This document shows, in pieces, positions 2,130 through 64,000 of a stretch of 64,000 nt of DNA. The position numbers and the translations under genes were made by a program. The notes below the pieces were generated by a model. That model made no database searches. It was not told the origin of the DNA and was given only the letters and a program-made list of their open reading frames with translations. The stretch lies in the NCBI RefSeq assembly GCF_013315695.1, contig NZ_CP054353.1; one strand, given 5' to 3'. The DNA is from Escherichia coli (GTDB taxonomy: Bacteria; Pseudomonadota; Gammaproteobacteria; Enterobacterales; Enterobacteriaceae). Within the stretch, counting starts at the first letter, position 1. Each line of letters starts with the position of its first letter.

Positions 2130-3293
2130 TTACGCCTTCTTTATATCCTCCATAATTCCACAGTGGGACATATTTGGGACATTATCACCAAAAATGTCGT
2201 CTATTTTCCTTGCATGCTCTGTCAAATGATTAGGCGCAAGGTGAGCATACCTACGAACCATTTCTATGGACTCCCATCCGCCCATTTCCTGAAGCACAGA
2301 TAATGGGACGCCTGACTGGATCAGCCAGCTTGCCCAGGTGTGTCTGAGGTCATGGAAACGGAAATCTTCAATTCCTGCACGACGACAAGCTGATAGCCAT
2401 GATGTCTTGCTGTCGATGCGCATCTTCCTGACCGCAGGCGTTGATGTTCCATCTGCTCGCTTAGTCGCCTTGGTATGTACAAACACCCATTTGTGATGCT
2501 TGCCTATTTGATCACGCAACACTTTACAGGCGGTATCGTTCAGCGCCACACCAATGGCGCGGTTTGATTTGCTCTCTTCTGGATTCACCCAGGCAACTCG
2601 TCGCTGCATGTCGATTTGTTGCCATTCCAGATTTATGATGTTCGACTTTCTCAGACCAGTTGCCAGCGCAAACTTGACGACAGATTTCAGTGGTTCGGGG
2701 CACTCATCAATAAGGCGTTTTGCTTCCTCCTTTTCCAGCCATCTGACTCGCTTGTTTCTGACCGCTGGTATCTTGATGACAGGCGCTTTTTCCAGCCACT
2801 TCCAGTCGCGTTCTGCAGCACGGAGAATGGCCTTTATCATGGCAAGATGCTTTGCCTTTGTCTGAGTTGATACTGGCTTTGGTTCATAAACAGGCGGTTC
2901 TTTACCTTTCCTGATGGCGGCCTGAACTTTCTGTTTCCATATTTCTTTCGTCTTTCTGTTATGCATTCTGCTTACAGCAGAGTAAATCTTTGCCTCCGAG
3001 ATATCTTTAAGCCTTATACCCTCAAAATGTTCAAGCCAGAACTCAATCCGGCTTTTATCTGAATCGAGAGATTTTTTATCAGCTTTTTCCTCAAGCCATC
3101 TTAGGCAGGCCTCTTCAAAAGTGACATCAGGTAAATCCCCTAGCTTTTCTACTCGCCAGAGTTCTGCTTTTCGCTTGTCGTGCAACTCCTGAGCTTGCCG
3201 CTTGTCCTTTGTGCCAAGAGATTCCTTAATTCGTTTCCCGCCCGGGAGCGAATACGAGGCATACCATATTTCATTTCTGCGGAAGAGTGACAT
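2130..3293 (-). CDS. intD: tyrosine-recombinase prophage integrase (DLP12 IntD type)
   Basis: 387-aa ORF adjacent to the tRNA att site. C-terminal catalytic motifs ([32 protein letters not shown]). Sequence recognised as DLP12 IntD. Confidence 0.95.
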
Positions 3294-3520
3294 TTTCTTT
3301 CCTCTGTTATGCCATCACCCGCGCTCACCTGGACAGTATGCAGCGGAGACTGAAGCGCCGCAATGCAAGCTTGCCGTGTTGTGAGGTAAGGAGATTTTGG
3401 CTTGGTTGGATCTTTACGTGTTGCCTGTAGGCGGCCTGTTCGTATCCAGTTGGTGGCGGTTGGTCTGGATATCTTAAGAAACTGACAGGCCTCATCGAGT
3501 GTGAGGCTGTATGGCTCCAT
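3149..3520 (-). CDS. xisD: excisionase-like HTH protein; 3' ~145 nt overlaps int in another frame, so the true C terminus is uncertain
   Basis: Internal Met of track ORF 3149-3604 ([31 protein letters not shown]), an excisionase-type helix-turn-helix. Position directly upstream of int. Confidence 0.55.
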
Positions 3521-58285: not shown

Positions 58286-58534
58286 TTAATCCGCCAGCGA
58301 GAACCAGCGTCGCCAGATAAAGCGTAGAACAAAATACTCAATAGCGCCCAGCACTAAAAACCACAGACAAAACAATAAAGTGTAAAGCTGGCTAAGATCC
58401 ATCAGATGGAACGTGGTCACCAGTTTTTGTGCCAGCGTCAGCCCCAATGCGGGGGCGGGAAGCAGCAGGCAAGAGAGGAAAGCCATCAGCAAAATGCCTG
58501 CTGCGGTGGTCAAGGTTTCTAAAGGGTGTTTCAT
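58286..58534 (-). CDS. ybdJ: small inner-membrane protein YbdJ
   Basis: 82 aa with two hydrophobic segments. Synteny with ybdF and ybdK. Confidence 0.8.
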
Positions 58535-58599
58535 AACATTGTTAAATGTAAGTTAAAACACCATTGTCAGGGATATTCTTCTGTAAGGCAATTCCCGGC

Positions 58600-59727
<1,128 letters not shown>

Positions 59728-60004
59728 TTATGTTGGCGTTTTCTATTCAGTATAGAAGTGGGAGCGACTGGGCGAGATGCGGAAGTTCTGGAATATTTCT
59801 TTTTTTTGGATGGTGACTGAAGCAAATTGGCTACATTTTGCAATGTGACCAGTTGCGTCATAGCTGGCTGGTGGCGAAGAATTTTGACGATTGCGGCATG
59901 CAGAAAAAAACGGGTTCAGCTTCAGTTGATCAAATGGGGAGTGAGAAGTCCGAAACAGGATTTACTGTATAAATAAGGGTCTTCCCCGATCATGGTGGGA
60001 AGAC

Positions 60005-61225
60005 TCAGTACGCCATATTCAGTTTCCCATAGTGGAACATAACTCCCAGTTTAAAGCGTTCCCGGTTTCGGTATCCCCTGGCCTTTATCCTCAGCAGTCT
60101 GATCTTGCTGTTCAGCGCCTCCGCATTTCCATTCGAGACGCGATGACGCATTGCATTCAGTATTCCGTATAACCGTTTTTTAATGGTTTTCGCTGCGTTT
60201 TTCATCATCGGCACATCACATTCAGACGCCAGCGATATCCACTGCAACCAGTCATTCCTGCGTTCTGTGCTCCAGGGGCGATCCCAGATATTTTTTGCCA
60301 GCTCTTTCAGTGTCCAGCACTGGCTTGTCTGTTGCATCTGTTCCCGCAACCACATCAGCTTTTCCTGCCGGGACTCAGTCATCCATTTGTCGCTGTACTG
60401 CCACAGGAAGCGGGTACCTTTGGCCTGACGACGACTTTCAACAGGGAGGTGCGGATGTTCATTCTGGCGGGTTTTATCAACCACTTCGCCCAGTTGCTTC
60501 GCCACATGGAAGCGATCGAAGGCGATTTTCTCGACCGCATTGGGTAAATGGATACGCGCTGCTCTTATATAGCCCGCATTCATGTCCATCGACAGTGTTT
60601 TGATGGCCAACAACTGACTGTCAGTAAGCGAACGGAGATAGCTGGCAAGACTCTCTGTGCCACGATCATCGGTTAATGCCAGTGCCCGCCCGTCGCGATC
60701 AGATACCACGGTTATATACCTATGCCCTTTTTTAAAGGCGACTTCGTCTACATTCATATGACGCACTGATAAAGGCTTTTTAATCCGCGACAGGCCTCGC
60801 TTAACCGCGCGGGTCATGATGCCGTCAACGGCATTCCAGCTAAGTTTAAGTTGTTTTCTGACCGCATCAACGGTGCTGATTTTAAGCCATGAGAGCACGA
60901 ACGATTCGAACAGCAGAGTGTACCGACTGCCGGAACCTGCCCACGGTACAGGCAGAGTCTGGCAGCCATGCTCCGGGCACATAACGCGGGGAACATCGGC
61001 TTCTACTAATGTCATGAACTGGCAGGTATCAAGGTGGCGCCATTTACGATGTCGGTGATCGTGAACAGAACAGGATTTCCTGCAGGTCGGACAGGTTAAC
61101 TGAGTATTTTCAGCAATTCCGACTGTAACAGTAACGGAACCTGCATTTTCATCGAGGGTAAGGGATTTAACCTGCCATGGTGCAGTCAGGTTAAGGATAT
61201 GGGCATAGAGGGATTTTTCGTCCAT
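60005..61225 (-). CDS. ISL3-family DDE transposase
   Basis: 406 aa. N-terminal zinc-finger (CPTCRKSCSVHDHRHRKWRH...CPEHGC) followed by a DDE_Tnp_ISL3-like body. Confidence 0.9.
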   Translation of the reverse strand: MDEKSLYAHILNLTAPWQVKSLTLDENAGSVTVTVGIAENTQLTCPTCRKSCSVHDHRHRKWRHLDTCQFMTLVEADVPRVMCPEHGCQTLPVPWAGSGSRYTLLFESFVLSWLKISTVDAVRKQLKLSWNAVDGIMTRAVKRGLSRIKKPLSVRHMNVDEVAFKKGHRYITVVSDRDGRALALTDDRGTESLASYLRSLTDSQLLAIKTLSMDMNAGYIRAARIHLPNAVEKIAFDRFHVAKQLGEVVDKTRQNEHPHLPVESRRQAKGTRFLWQYSDKWMTESRQEKLMWLREQMQQTSQCWTLKELAKNIWDRPWSTERRNDWLQWISLASECDVPMMKNAAKTIKKRLYGILNAMRHRVSNGNAEALNSKIRLLRIKARGYRNRERFKLGVMFHYGKLNMAY

Positions 61226-61243
61226 ATAATTTCATTCTGAAGC

Positions 61244-61762
61244 TTACTTTAAACTGATATTATTATTTTTTGCCCACTTTCTTAATCTTCCATTAGCGTT
61301 GGCGTAAGGCGAAGATGTGTTAAATGAGATCATTCTCCCCATCGTCCATTTTGTGTACCATGGTCTTCCATACAAAATATCATCGGTACGATCATTAATA
61401 AGGTTCACAATCTCATTTTTTACAGTCTGAAGTTCAGCTACTAACAACTCATAACTTAACTCACTGTAATCTGAGTAAAATTTTTGAGCAAGAAGGCCAA
61501 GCTGATTCCATTTATAGCCAGTTTCCGGAAAATCGACAGGCAGACCTTTAGCATCAGAAGCGATCCACTTTACAACAAGAGCATTCCATCCAAGCAGATA
61601 CGAAACGAGATCACGAACACTCATCTCCGTTCCTTTGGCGTGTCCGTCCATTGATTTATCTGAAGTAATTTCTGGTGGGATTGTGTTGAGGTAACTAATT
61701 AATTTACTAAAATTTTTATCAATAGCTAAAAGCAGTTCAGCTTTTGTTTGCGGCACACTCAT
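61244..61762 (-). CDS. ClbS/DfsB-family (DUF1706) four-helix-bundle protein, IS passenger
   Basis: 172 aa. Conserved blocks shared with my memory of colibactin self-resistance protein ClbS: GHAKGT..SV..LVSYL.GW, FPE.G.KWN.LG.LAQKFY.DY, LYG.PWY.KWT.GRMI.FNT.SPY.NA.GRL.K. It lies 18 nt upstream of the transposase, inside the IRs. Confidence 0.7.
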   Translation of the reverse strand: MSVPQTKAELLLAIDKNFSKLISYLNTIPPEITSDKSMDGHAKGTEMSVRDLVSYLLGWNALVVKWIASDAKGLPVDFPETGYKWNQLGLLAQKFYSDYSELSYELLVAELQTVKNEIVNLINDRTDDILYGRPWYTKWTMGRMISFNTSSPYANANGRLRKWAKNNNISLK

Positions 61763-62051
61763 AAGAATTCCCTCTCATGTAAAAAGAGACACCATAAAGG
61801 TACTGTGTGGTGTTTGAAAATCACTCAATTATGTACCACCCACCACAACAGGGGAAGACCCATAAATAAACAGTTATTTTGTTGAGGAAGGGTAAGATAA
61901 CTGCGGGTGCCTGAAGCTTTCCGGTTTCAGGTTTACTTTGAGGTCTGGAAAGATGAAGCCCCAGGAGATATTTCTATCAACCCTGGGGCTGCCACTCCAA
62001 ACCCGAACAATTTGGATGGTAGTCCCTTCTTCGCATGGAGGCAATATAAAC

Positions 62052-62204
62052 ATGCTGACGAAATATGCCCTTGTGGCAGTCATAGTGCTGTGTTTAACGG
62101 TGCTGGGATTTACGCTTCTGGTCGGAGACTCGCTGTGTGAGTTTACGGTGAAGGAACGTAATATTGAGTTTAAGGCTGTTCTCGCTTACGAACCGAAGAA
62201 GTAG
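62052..62204 (+). CDS. hokE: Hok-family type I toxin HokE (in-frame upstream Mok-like extension from ATG 61953)
   Basis: [50 protein letters not shown] (50 aa), the internal start of track ORF 61938-62204. Confidence 0.85.
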
Positions 62205-62325
62205 CCGCTGTGCGGGGAGTAATCCCCGCATATCCGGTTGTCAGGTCAGGATGGTAAGGCACCTGCTTTACACTTTCGCCCGCGGTCAGCAATGGCTGCG
62301 GGCGAATCGTACCAGATGTTGTCAA

Positions 62326-62946
62326 TTAATCGTGTTGGCACAGCGTTATGACTATTTTTTCTTTTATCTGCCAGTGCACAGCAAACTGCTCATCCTCTAG
62401 TCGAATGATGATCTGCTGTTTATTCCAGCTAATTATCTGATAATCCAGAAAACCTTGAGCGGCCTGTATCTTGCTTGCCTTAAATGCGCTCTCTTTGGCG
62501 GAAAATGCCAGTGTCAGCGCCAGAGAAAAGGTTAAACCGCATTCTGCGAGTCGCTCGTGTTCTGCTGGTGTAATAATGTTGTCTGTCAATTCTCTAGCGG
62601 TTTGTACAGAGAAAATCTCTTCGATATCAATGCCAATCGGTTGACGAGATACCACGGCTAATGCCGTAGTCCCATAGTGACTAATGCTGCCGTATACCCC
62701 CGCAGGCCACACAGGTTGGCGTAGCTCGCCGATTGCGGGCACACATTTATAGCCATATTCCCGCAGCGCATAAACTGCAGCGATCCGTCCGGCTAAATGC
62801 TCTGTTTTACGTTTACGTCCAGCGTGTTGCAGTTGCGCGTAGTGCGGCAGCCAGAGTAAATCCTGCTCGCGAAAACTCGCAGGATCGAACTCAACAAAAT
62901 GCAGCGTATGTCCGGTAAAGGGGAGGGCGGTATGCGTAGTTTTCAT
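62326..62946 (-). CDS. entD: enterobactin synthase 4'-phosphopantetheinyl transferase EntD
   Basis: 206 aa MKTTHTALPFTGHTLHFVEFDP... PPTase motifs (GSISH, FSAKESAFK). Confidence 0.9.
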   Translation of the reverse strand: MKTTHTALPFTGHTLHFVEFDPASFREQDLLWLPHYAQLQHAGRKRKTEHLAGRIAAVYALREYGYKCVPAIGELRQPVWPAGVYGSISHYGTTALAVVSRQPIGIDIEEIFSVQTARELTDNIITPAEHERLAECGLTFSLALTLAFSAKESAFKASKIQAAQGFLDYQIISWNKQQIIIRLEDEQFAVHWQIKEKIVITLCQHD

Positions 62947-62995
62947 GTCAACTATATTATTCCTCCCCCAAATATCGGGGGAGGAAGCGTTAGCA

Positions 62996-64000
62996 TCAGA
63001 AGTGAGTGTTTACGCTCATATACCACGTACGTCCCGGCTCGTTATAGGTATACGCCCCGGCACCGGCGATATAGTTGGCTCCTGCCAGATCGCCCGTGGT
63101 CTGGGCATTACCCGCACGCCACAAACGTTTGTCGAACAGGTTGTCCACGCCGCCGGTCAGACTGACATTCTTCGTCACATCCCAGGTCGCGCTCAGACCC
63201 ACAATGCTGTAAGGACTGATTTCTTTGGTTTCCGGGCCAACCGCTGGCTGACCTTTATAGTTGTACTTCTTCGGCTGCTGCTTGCCGTACCAGGTGAAGG
63301 TCGTTTGCATCGACAAATCTTCCCGTGCCTGCCAGCTCAGCGTTGAGTTCAACGTATACTCCGGGATGATCGACAAACGGTCGCCCGTGGTTTTGTTTTC
63401 ACTCTTCAGCATATAAGTGATGTTATTGGTCCACATCACCGTTTCGCTAACCGGTACGTTTAACGATCCTTCCAGACCTTCAACCACCGCTTTCGGTACG
63501 TTATCCCACTGATAGAGATCGGTGCCGACTGCGTTTTGCCCTACAGCCACATAGCCCGCTTCAATCTTATTGCGATAATCGTTGCGGAACCAGGTGACGC
63601 CCGCCAGCCAGCCGTCGCGTTTGAACTCCAGACCAATCTCTTTGTTGATGCTGGTTTCTGCTTTCAGGTCATCATTACCTTGCAGATAGCAGCCGCCCGC
63701 GCTGGCATAGCAGCCCTGACCTTTACTGTAGAGAATGTAGTTTGGGTTAGTCTGGTACAGACTCGGCGCTTTATAAGCACGGGCAATGCCCATTTTCAGC
63801 GTGAAGTCATCGCCTAAACCTTGCGATATGTTTAGAGCCGGACTCCAGTTATTGCCAACAATGCTGTGATGATCGAAACGCAGCCCCGGCGTTACGATGG
63901 TGCTGTCAGTCAGCTCCATATTGTTTTCGGCAAATAGCGAGAAAATTTCTGCTTTTGAATACGGGCTACGGTCGGTGGCACTCACACCATCAATAGCACC
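62996..64000 (-). CDS. fepA: ferric-enterobactin TonB-dependent receptor FepA, C-terminal part (5' end outside window)
   Basis: Frame open to the window edge. C-terminal TonB-dependent barrel ending ...GRTWYMSVNTHF. Confidence 0.9.
   Translation of the reverse strand, partial: GAIDGVSATDRSPYSKAEIFSLFAENNMELTDSTIVTPGLRFDHHSIVGNNWSPALNISQGLGDDFTLKMGIARAYKAPSLYQTNPNYILYSKGQGCYASAGGCYLQGNDDLKAETSINKEIGLEFKRDGWLAGVTWFRNDYRNKIEAGYVAVGQNAVGTDLYQWDNVPKAVVEGLEGSLNVPVSETVMWTNNITYMLKSENKTTGDRLSIIPEYTLNSTLSWQAREDLSMQTTFTWYGKQQPKKYNYKGQPAVGPETKEISPYSIVGLSATWDVTKNVSLTGGVDNLFDKRLWRAGNAQTTGDLAGANYIAGAGAYTYNEPGRTWYMSVNTHF

Follow-up and report, generated by a model that had tools for sequence, protein, structure and literature searches.

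We analyzed a 64,000-nucleotide stretch of Escherichia coli DNA (hereafter, the window; contig NZ_CP054353.1 of assembly GCF_013315695.1) and found that its positions 59977 to 61861, on the minus strand, hold a complete ISL3-family insertion sequence (IS) of 1885 bp, which carries a ClbS-like passenger gene and splits a LexA-type operator upstream of the toxin gene hokE. Most of the distinct insertion sites found for this element and its relatives are of the same kind, and homing to LexA operators is, on the evidence of these sites, strongly supported. Collectively, we consider it highly probable that the element is a known mobile ISL3 IS composed of an ISKox3-like backbone and a ClbS/DfsB cargo, that it targets LexA operators, and that its passenger is a probable cyclopropane hydrolase. 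Parts of this picture are already known: the IS is catalogued, the structure of the passenger has been solved, and a "clbS-like transposon" hypothesis has been published. Relative to these, what is new within the literature searched is the specificity for LexA operators. We found no report of an IS or ISL3 insertion into LexA or SOS boxes in that literature, outside which lay ISfinder and the subscription journals.

Insertion within the hokE operator

The left inverted repeat (IRL, at the transposase end; GGGTCTTCCCCGATCATGGTGGG) occupies positions 59977 to 59999 on the plus strand, and the right inverted repeat (IRR, at the passenger end; reverse complement GGGTCTTCCCCTGTTGTGGTGGG) occupies positions 61839 to 61861 on the minus strand. 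The two repeats, which an earlier note on this DNA had described as imperfect and 23 bp long, share the start GGGTCTTCCCC and are identical at 19 of 23 positions, and the terminus formed by IRL recurs in ISKox3 and in relatives across many Enterobacterales. The same note had pointed to a perfect direct repeat on both flanks, which we found to be the octamer ATAAATAA at positions 59969 to 59976 and 61862 to 61869; the local layout reads TTTACTGT ATAAATAA / GGGTCTTCCCCGATCATGGTGGG ... CCCACCACAACAGGGGAAGACCC / ATAAATAA ACAGTTAT. In strain RIVM_C036569, the empty ybdK-hokE site contains only one ATAAATAA (within CTTACTGTATAAATAAACAGTTAT), and the flanking repeat is therefore a true target-site duplication.

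Directly outside the duplication lie TACTGT (positions 59963 to 59968) and ACAGTT (61870 to 61875), i.e., the two halves of the hokE LexA operator, now separated by the insertion. When the site is restored, it reads TACTGT-ATAAATAA-ACAGTT, and the full box of the empty site (TACTGTATAAATAAACAGTT) has the form of a LexA operator, namely a 16-bp CTGT-N8-ACAG palindrome with an AT-rich spacer, the spacer being the duplicated octamer. This palindrome stands ~180 nt upstream of hokE (positions 62052 to 62204, plus strand), which we take to be an SOS gene and whose position follows the annotation made by the NCBI Prokaryotic Genome Annotation Pipeline (PGAP) for the collinear strain MSB1_4I. As a result of the insertion, hokE is now cut off from whatever stands to the left of the element.

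Insertion sites of the exact element

Target sites were restored in 20 genomic contexts of the exact passenger and transposase, and each duplication listed for them is 8 bp long. Apart from hokE of the window, these sites include a plasmid dinI-like/impCAB site (TACTGT-ATATACAT-ACAGCA, together with a variant in the opposite orientation), chromosomal dinI (CACTGT-ACATTAAT-ACAGTA), dinD (AACTGT-GTTTATAT-ACAGTT), symE (TACTGA-TGATATAT-CCAGGT), umuDC and sbmC (TACTGT-ATATAAAA-ACAGTA, with sbmC hit in both orientations), and hokE in a diverged lineage (AACTGT-ATAAATAA-ACAGCT). LexA-type boxes were also restored in a Mu-like prophage (GATACTGT-ATGTACAT-ACAGTATT) and in a lambdoid prophage (CAACCTGT-ATATTTAT-ACAGTATT), and a site within an IS3-family element reads TACTGG-AGACAAAT-ACAGCT. 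The genes neighboring these insertions encode DinI, UmuD/ImpA, UmuC, SymE, DinD, and SbmC. Strain K-12 contains the sbmC, umuD, and dinD boxes uninterrupted and equal to the restored sites, and a pseudo-box in fimB that is occupied elsewhere (GTGT-ATATATAT-CCAT) is likewise uninterrupted there. In one further E. coli context, near pspF (L149:1365-3249), the exact element lies between perfect 8-bp repeats, CGATAAGC, at a site unrelated to the LexA box, which means that off-target insertion occurs.

For a statistical comparison, we used the complete elements with perfect repeats, which gave 18 distinct restored 20-mers, and took the background from the same DNA. The pattern CTG-N10-CAG was found in 16 of the 18 (background, 3.9e-4 per position; binomial P, 4e-53), and the longer CTGT-N8-ACAG in 14 of the 18 (background, 2.1e-5 per position; binomial P, 1e-62). 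No bias was seen in the orientation of the element relative to the SOS gene, with ~5 sense and 6 antisense insertions, and both sbmC and impCAB were hit both ways. Judging from these sites, the transposase of this clade cuts almost only inside LexA operators, with an 8-bp stagger.

We considered whether CTGT and ACAG could be part of the IS termini and rejected this, since the boxes are uninterrupted in the empty sites of other strains and of K-12 and since the spacers vary by site. We likewise rejected a rebuilding of the LexA box at the junction upon insertion, as the junctions read CTGT-N8-GGGT. Within the element itself, CTG-N10-CAG does not occur, which rules out that a box of its own makes the cargo SOS-regulated.

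Some points weigh against LexA-operator homing as we describe it. The insertion sites are distinct contexts as listed and do not constitute a random sample of insertions, and two of the 18 sites (i.e., the fimB pseudo-box and the unrelated CGATAAGC) do not fit CTG-N10-CAG. In addition, that LexA would bind these boxes is taken from established knowledge of the E. coli SOS regulon and from the gene neighbors, and the manner in which the boxes are recognized is wholly inferred.

Targeting across the clade

To relatives of the element we applied a scan for IR termini that covered one genome per species. About half of the 120 loci obtained were chance hits or belonged to another ISL3 clade, and these served as an internal control. 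CTG occurred at positions -12 to -10 in 54 of the 74 nonredundant enterobacterial-type ends, versus 2 of the 73 control ends (chance hits and a marine ISL3 clade). Taken singly, the C, T, and G were each present in 58 to 63 of the 74 flanks, and the flank consensus from -14 to -1 is TACTGTATATATAT, which we take to be half of the LexA consensus TACTGTATATATATACAGTA. The genes reading away from the clade ends encode UmuD, Cho, UvrA, DNA polymerase IV, QnrB, DinI, RecA, and UvrB, as well as PurT, whose gene in E. coli adjoins the SOS gene yebG. Across the clade, LexA-box sites were found upstream of umuD, sbmC, dinD, dinI, symE, tisB, recA, uvrA, uvrB, cho, dinB, and qnrB. The trait holds for transposases down to ~64% identity with that of the window and is absent at 46% identity or less. 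We regard as evenly balanced the broader claim that homing to LexA sites unites ISKox3, the ISEc53/ISEc55 type, and their cargo-bearing derivatives, to ~64% transposase identity, into the first IS family known to be aimed at the binding sites of a global stress repressor.

Individual loci from the scan merit mention. In a Scandinavium metagenome-assembled genome (L047), in Symbiopectobacterium (L064 and L028), and at L118, the LexA boxes hit are those immediately preceding recA, uvrA, uvrB, cho, and a gene of the QnrB family; the recA and uvrA/uvrB insertions were found in a genome-degrading symbiont. Where the qnrB operator has been hit, a quinolone-resistance gene could be released from repression. 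The marine ISL3 clade (L024, L027, L042, L063, L069, L123, L124, and L126, from Alcanivorax, Haliea, Porticoccaceae, and other Gammaproteobacteria) has nearly the same termini (GGGTCTTCCCCAATCATGGTGGGTAATC), with flanks that are AT-rich and not LexA-like, and the one member compared (L063) has a transposase with 43% identity to that of the window. This clade can serve as a natural comparison for finding what determines the choice of target.

Recognition of the operator and effects of insertion

Each staggered cut lies exactly where CTGT or ACAG borders the spacer, so that the 8 bp of the spacer are duplicated and the operator is split. The fimB pseudo-box is without the outer C and G of CTG/CAG, and for this reason we favor direct recognition, with the transposase most likely responding to the palindrome of the operator DNA as such. 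Insertion into a box may occur when LexA has been cleaved during the SOS response and the box is vacant.

Alternatively, though in our view doubtfully, the transposase could dock on operator-bound LexA, as Tn7 and Ty use host DNA-binding proteins, and cut on either side of the spacer. Guidance by LexA would fit the cuts being in exact register with both LexA half-sites, and also the observation that nearly all CTGT-N8-ACAG hits are real SOS operators, given that chance supplies this sequence at ~2e-5 per position, or ~100 sites per 4.6-Mb genome. However, a preference of the transposase for AT-rich spacers would equally explain the choice of real operators. Furthermore, the fimB site was used in the canonical register even though it is without the C and G of CTG/CAG, the bases on which LexA depends most.

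It is very improbable that the LexA-box pattern is no property of the transposase at all, with any AT-rich palindrome serving as a target or with random insertions merely surviving in dispensable SOS promoters. ISL3 elements are generally said to favor AT-rich 8-bp targets, and the non-LexA flanks of the marine clade, whose IR termini are the same, agree with such an explanation; but the frequency of each base of CTG among the clade flanks is a signal beyond AT-richness, the same boxes have been hit independently in both orientations, and selection cannot produce single-base register, the duplication lying exactly between the half-sites in 16 of the 18 sites. This precise register argues for mechanistic recognition rather than selection.

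The expected effects of insertion are as follows. With no box rebuilt at either junction, the binding of a LexA dimer to the split hokE operator would be lost, and hokE would be uncoupled from its SOS-controlled promoter, the window element presumably lying antisense to the hokE promoter side. More generally, an SOS gene downstream of an insertion would lose LexA control or its promoter. In sense insertions, such as those at sbmC in Nissle 1917 and at dinD, transcription from the former SOS promoter may extend into the cargo and the transposase.

Identity and mobility of the element

The transposase gene (positions 60005 to 61225, minus strand; WP_000343765.1) encodes 406 amino acids, and the earlier assignment of its product to the ISL3 type is borne out by profile matches to Pfam DDE_Tnp_ISL3 (PF01610, 1.3e-58), HTH_Tnp_ISL3 (PF13542), and Zn_ribbon_ISL3 (PF14690), and to the NCBIfam ISL3 model NF033550 (328 bits, with a cut-off of 180). 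A DDE transposase with an N-terminal zinc ribbon and a helix-turn-helix domain, together with the IRs and an 8-bp duplication, places the element in the ISL3 family. PGAP labels the transposase as belonging to the "ISL3-like element ISEc53 family".

The element is one copy of a known, currently mobile ISL3 "transporter" IS. Identical copies occur at unrelated loci, with a separate 8-bp repeat at each of more than 12 distinct sites. A check for the same ~1.9-kb unit elsewhere, which the earlier note had proposed, returned 723 records of complete E. coli genomes in which the 1885 bp are at least 99% identical, at many loci. At least 80% of the element is present in 656 of 5426 complete E. coli genomes, on chromosomes and plasmids and in up to 9 places per genome. 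Among the plasmids of PLSDB, 211 records match at 99% identity or more and 203 contain at least 80% of the element, the carriers including pUTI89 as well as Klebsiella and Enterobacter plasmids. The phage collection searched yielded ISKox3-like fragments and no full copy.

The same sequence disrupts fimB in genomes of sequence type 131 (ST131), an insertion that the ST131 literature names fimB::ISEc55. We found the ISEc53/"ISEc55" copies to be the same element, 100% identical over 1885 bp in the listed ST131, Nissle 1917, IAI39, and CE10 genomes and 99.9% identical on pUTI89, with the same two proteins, WP_000343765.1 and WP_000115885.1. They differ from the window copy by insertion site only. 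In the common ST131-type fimB insertion (L005 and L008), the left copy of the duplication is short by 3 nt (GTGTATATA|IS|ATATATATCCAT), whereas the same insertion at L147 has a perfect ATATATAT repeat on both sides; the ST131-type left repeat looks like a secondary loss of 3 nt within an (AT)n run.

Insertion between ybdK and hokE is rare, being found in 12 of the 5426 complete E. coli genomes, with nearly all others empty at this site. This rarity and the perfect duplication are consistent with the recent, simple transposition that had been suggested. The window is collinear with the genome of E. coli MSB1_4I, a human rectal isolate, at 99.7 to 99.9% identity. According to the annotation of that genome, a lambdoid, DLP12-like prophage adjoining tRNA-Arg spans window positions ~2100 to 35500 and contains intD and complete sets of head and tail genes, as well as lysis genes, one IS1A copy, and a DinI-family pseudogene that is truncated; ompT, envY, nfrA, and the cus operon lie beside it.

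Composition and origin of the cargo

The passenger gene (positions 61244 to 61762, minus strand; WP_000115885.1) encodes 172 amino acids and is co-oriented with the transposase gene, with 18 nt between its end and the transposase ATG. The two genes are probably co-transcribed. Several comparisons delimit what has been added to the IS. One relative of the backbone is ISKox3, an ISL3 element common on IncX3 blaNDM plasmids, which has matching IR termini and a transposase region of ~85% nucleotide identity. It also shares the 8-bp duplication and the LexA-box target, as illustrated by the tisB box TACTGT-ATAAATAA-ACAGTA in strain ES4, where the same octamer as in the window flanks an ISKox3 copy at a different locus, adjoining tisB. 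Published maps of IncX3 blaNDM plasmids show an "ISKox3-umuD" arrangement, which is consistent with LexA-box targeting. ISKox3 differs in being 1316 bp long and without a passenger; its 67 bp from IRR to the transposase ATG are unrelated to the cargo of the window element. Homology to ISKox3, at ~85% nucleotide identity, runs from IRL to position 61225, where the transposase ATG begins, and no further.

From the other side, Citrobacter amalonaticus has a chromosomal homologue of the passenger with 88% protein identity, in a conserved context without transposase and without IR. This locus (L136) matches IS positions 40 to 637, i.e., the stretch between IRR and the transposase ATG, at 85.7% nucleotide identity, and its homology ends at 61225, the same base at which that of ISKox3 ends. 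The two boundaries define the cargo module as positions 61225 to 61822 (minus strand), which comprises the passenger together with its own leader of ~60 bp and the 18-nt spacer. The element is therefore composed of an ISKox3-like backbone (i.e., the two IRs and the transposase) and, separating IRR from the start of the transposase gene, ~600 bp of cargo, namely a ClbS/DfsB gene of chromosomal type with a short leader of its own.

That the gene is a passenger, as the earlier note had held, was upheld by its absence from two places: the ybdK-hokE site that is empty of the IS has neither transposase nor ClbS-like gene, and ISKox3 has the same backbone without the gene. By contrast, the element recurs in identical form, cargo included, at unrelated loci. 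A gene not needed for transposition thus lies inside the IRs and is missing from both the empty site and the sister IS, as in a transporter IS.

Other candidate native loci were less clean. The Edwardsiella tarda copy (L140:2902-4165, 91%) was rejected as a native locus because it is a decayed IS with IRR and a CTGT-N8 flank, its transposase being truncated and having an internal deletion. The Dickeya dadantii copies (L141 and L142, ~2917-3519) were rejected as well, for they retain an IRR-like, partly duplicated remnant and no transposase; the context of the ClbS-like gene is common to both Dickeya genomes examined. Among the Citrobacter, Edwardsiella, and Dickeya candidates, only that of Citrobacter is without both IR and transposase.

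The leader of the passenger contains an inverted repeat, ACACCA-N13-TGGTGT (positions 61789 to 61813, minus strand), ~30 to 50 nt upstream of the passenger ATG. The Citrobacter homologue that has no transposase retains it (ACACCAC...ATGGTGT), and Dickeya does so loosely. For the cargo gene, this repeat could act as an operator or form an RNA hairpin; it is not a LexA box. No convincing LexA box was found ahead of the native gene in Citrobacter.

Other members of the clade combine the same backbone with different cargo, identified here by eye and not by profile search. A 1761-bp element (L104:2779-4539) carries a 133-amino-acid FosA/VOC-like open reading frame (ORF) downstream of the transposase, and a 2600-bp element (L117:2733-5332) carries a 149-amino-acid GNAT/AAC-like ORF and a 128-amino-acid ORF. 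Two Rahnella elements (L079:176-1859 and L020:3971-6079) have a 116-amino-acid ORF, to which L020 adds a second one of 103 amino acids.

The passenger protein

The ClbS/DfsB assignment of the 172-amino-acid ORF given in the earlier note holds over the full length of the family profile: residues 1 to 165 of the protein match positions 1 to 166 of 166 in Pfam DUF1706 (3e-54). The passenger is also 100% identical to PDB entry 5COF, solved as "EcDfsB" from E. coli UTI89, and has the four-helix-bundle fold of the family. ClbS of the pks island (PDB 6ANR), for which a structure is likewise available, belongs to the same family and is 54% identical over 166 residues, which amounts to the full length. 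The alignment of catalytic residues that had been called for turned out favorably: Tyr55 of ClbS aligns with Tyr55 of the passenger within the shared motif LVSYL(L/I)GW. In ClbS, this residue is needed for cyclopropane hydrolase activity, and the Y55F substitution abolishes protection.

The passenger differs from ClbS in lying inside an IS and not in the pks island, in having a deeply diverged nucleotide sequence, and in that its activity on colibactin is putative. As had been noted before, clb genes are lacking: none appear in the annotation of the collinear genome over window positions 3 to 49759, nor in the ORF list for positions 58500 to 64000. With no pks island and an IS-borne location at many unrelated loci, the passenger is an orphan ClbS-like gene and not clbS itself. 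If expressed, it would most likely hydrolyze the cyclopropane warhead of colibactin as ClbS does, and the earlier proposal that it serves as mobile colibactin immunity and as a shield for prophages is plausible in light of its sequence.

This concept has precedents. Silpe et al. (2022) describe orphan ClbS-like genes of pks-negative bacteria, the same concept as the window passenger, and report that all ClbS-like proteins tested (~27% to 80% identity to ClbS) protected; their panel included a 172-amino-acid E. coli homologue and a Dickeya dadantii protein. Two assayed accessions, QDM73539 and WP_038909824, could not be matched to the close relatives found here. Maklin et al. (2025, bioRxiv) describe a "clbS-like transposon" beside a single ISL3 transposase on pUTI89-like plasmids and on ST131 C1/C2 chromosomes, which is evidently the same element as the window copy. 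They proposed it as acquired colibactin immunity, linked it to multidrug-resistant lineages, and said that experiments are still needed. The passages searched in these two papers make no mention of IRs, a duplication, an IS name, or a target site, and a word search for "fimB" in Maklin et al. found nothing.

Several observations weigh against a role in colibactin immunity. In the BLAST table of Silpe et al. (2022), WP_000115885.1 stands at 53.6% identity to ClbS and outside the assayed set. A consensus scan of the sense strand upstream of the passenger found no sigma-70 consensus promoter, and expression is only putative. Many carriers are pks-positive and have their own clbS (e.g., Nissle 1917 and UTI89). 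Finally, close homologues exist in plant-associated Dickeya and Rahnella, which suggests that the natural substrate may be broader than colibactin.

Given these observations, we weighed a passenger that is not specific for colibactin, i.e., a general electrophile or genotoxin hydrolase, a DNA-protecting protein, or neutral cargo spread by clonal expansion of hosts and plasmids. We think this unlikely, if worth keeping in view. It would accommodate the pks-positive carriers, the unrelated cargo on the same backbone, the homologues of 78 to 88% identity that are ordinary chromosomal genes in Citrobacter and Dickeya, and the single ST131 fimB insertion that makes up much of the prevalence in E. 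coli; against it stand the degree of identity to ClbS with its conserved Tyr55 and, in Silpe et al., protection by every ClbS-like protein tested, down to ~27% identity. A further reading, in which the passenger would be a toxin and not an immunity protein, namely a DfsB-type precursor that gives rise to a secreted "sibling lethal factor" peptide, is scarcely credible. The family does take its name from DfsB of Paenibacillus, and this was also the setting in which 5COF was solved, but the 5COF authors state that there is no evidence of EcDfsB cleavage or DfsB-like action, and the passenger scores 191 bits against ClbS versus 71 bits against the Paenibacillus DfsB structure 5CIV.

Implications and comparison with known systems

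The window copy is a clean and fully delimited example of this element, with exact ends, cargo boundaries, an empty site, and a candidate chromosomal source type. As a group, elements of this kind are present in 1681 of the 5426 complete E. coli genomes (~30%) and on more than 1600 plasmids, including the IncX3 NDM plasmids with "ISKox3-umuD". If homing to LexA boxes is true, the positions of these elements become predictable, and each insertion is a candidate regulatory mutation of an SOS gene. The possible effects would comprise the loss or de-repression of toxins, error-prone polymerases, qnrB, and prophage functions, so that the SOS regulon would be rewired site by site: toxins (hokE, tisB, and symE), polymerases (umuDC, impCAB, and dinB), repair genes, and qnrB. 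Transposition, in turn, may depend on the SOS state of the cell, according to whether boxes are vacant or occupied, and the window copy would add a cargo that blunts a DNA-damaging toxin.

The element would then represent a natural case of a transposase aimed at the operator of a transcription factor. Narrow target choice is known from other mobile elements: Tn7 inserts at attTn7, IS1397 and ISKpn1 in repetitive extragenic palindromic sequences and bacterial interspersed mosaic elements (REP/BIME), Tn5053 and other "res hunters" in res sites, and elements of the TnGBS/ISLre2 type upstream of sigma-A promoters. Like these, the window element combines a DDE transposase with a narrow target, defined by sequence or structure, in noncoding regulatory DNA. 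Unlike them, it has as its apparent target the operator of a global repressor, which is cut symmetrically and whose spacer becomes the duplication.

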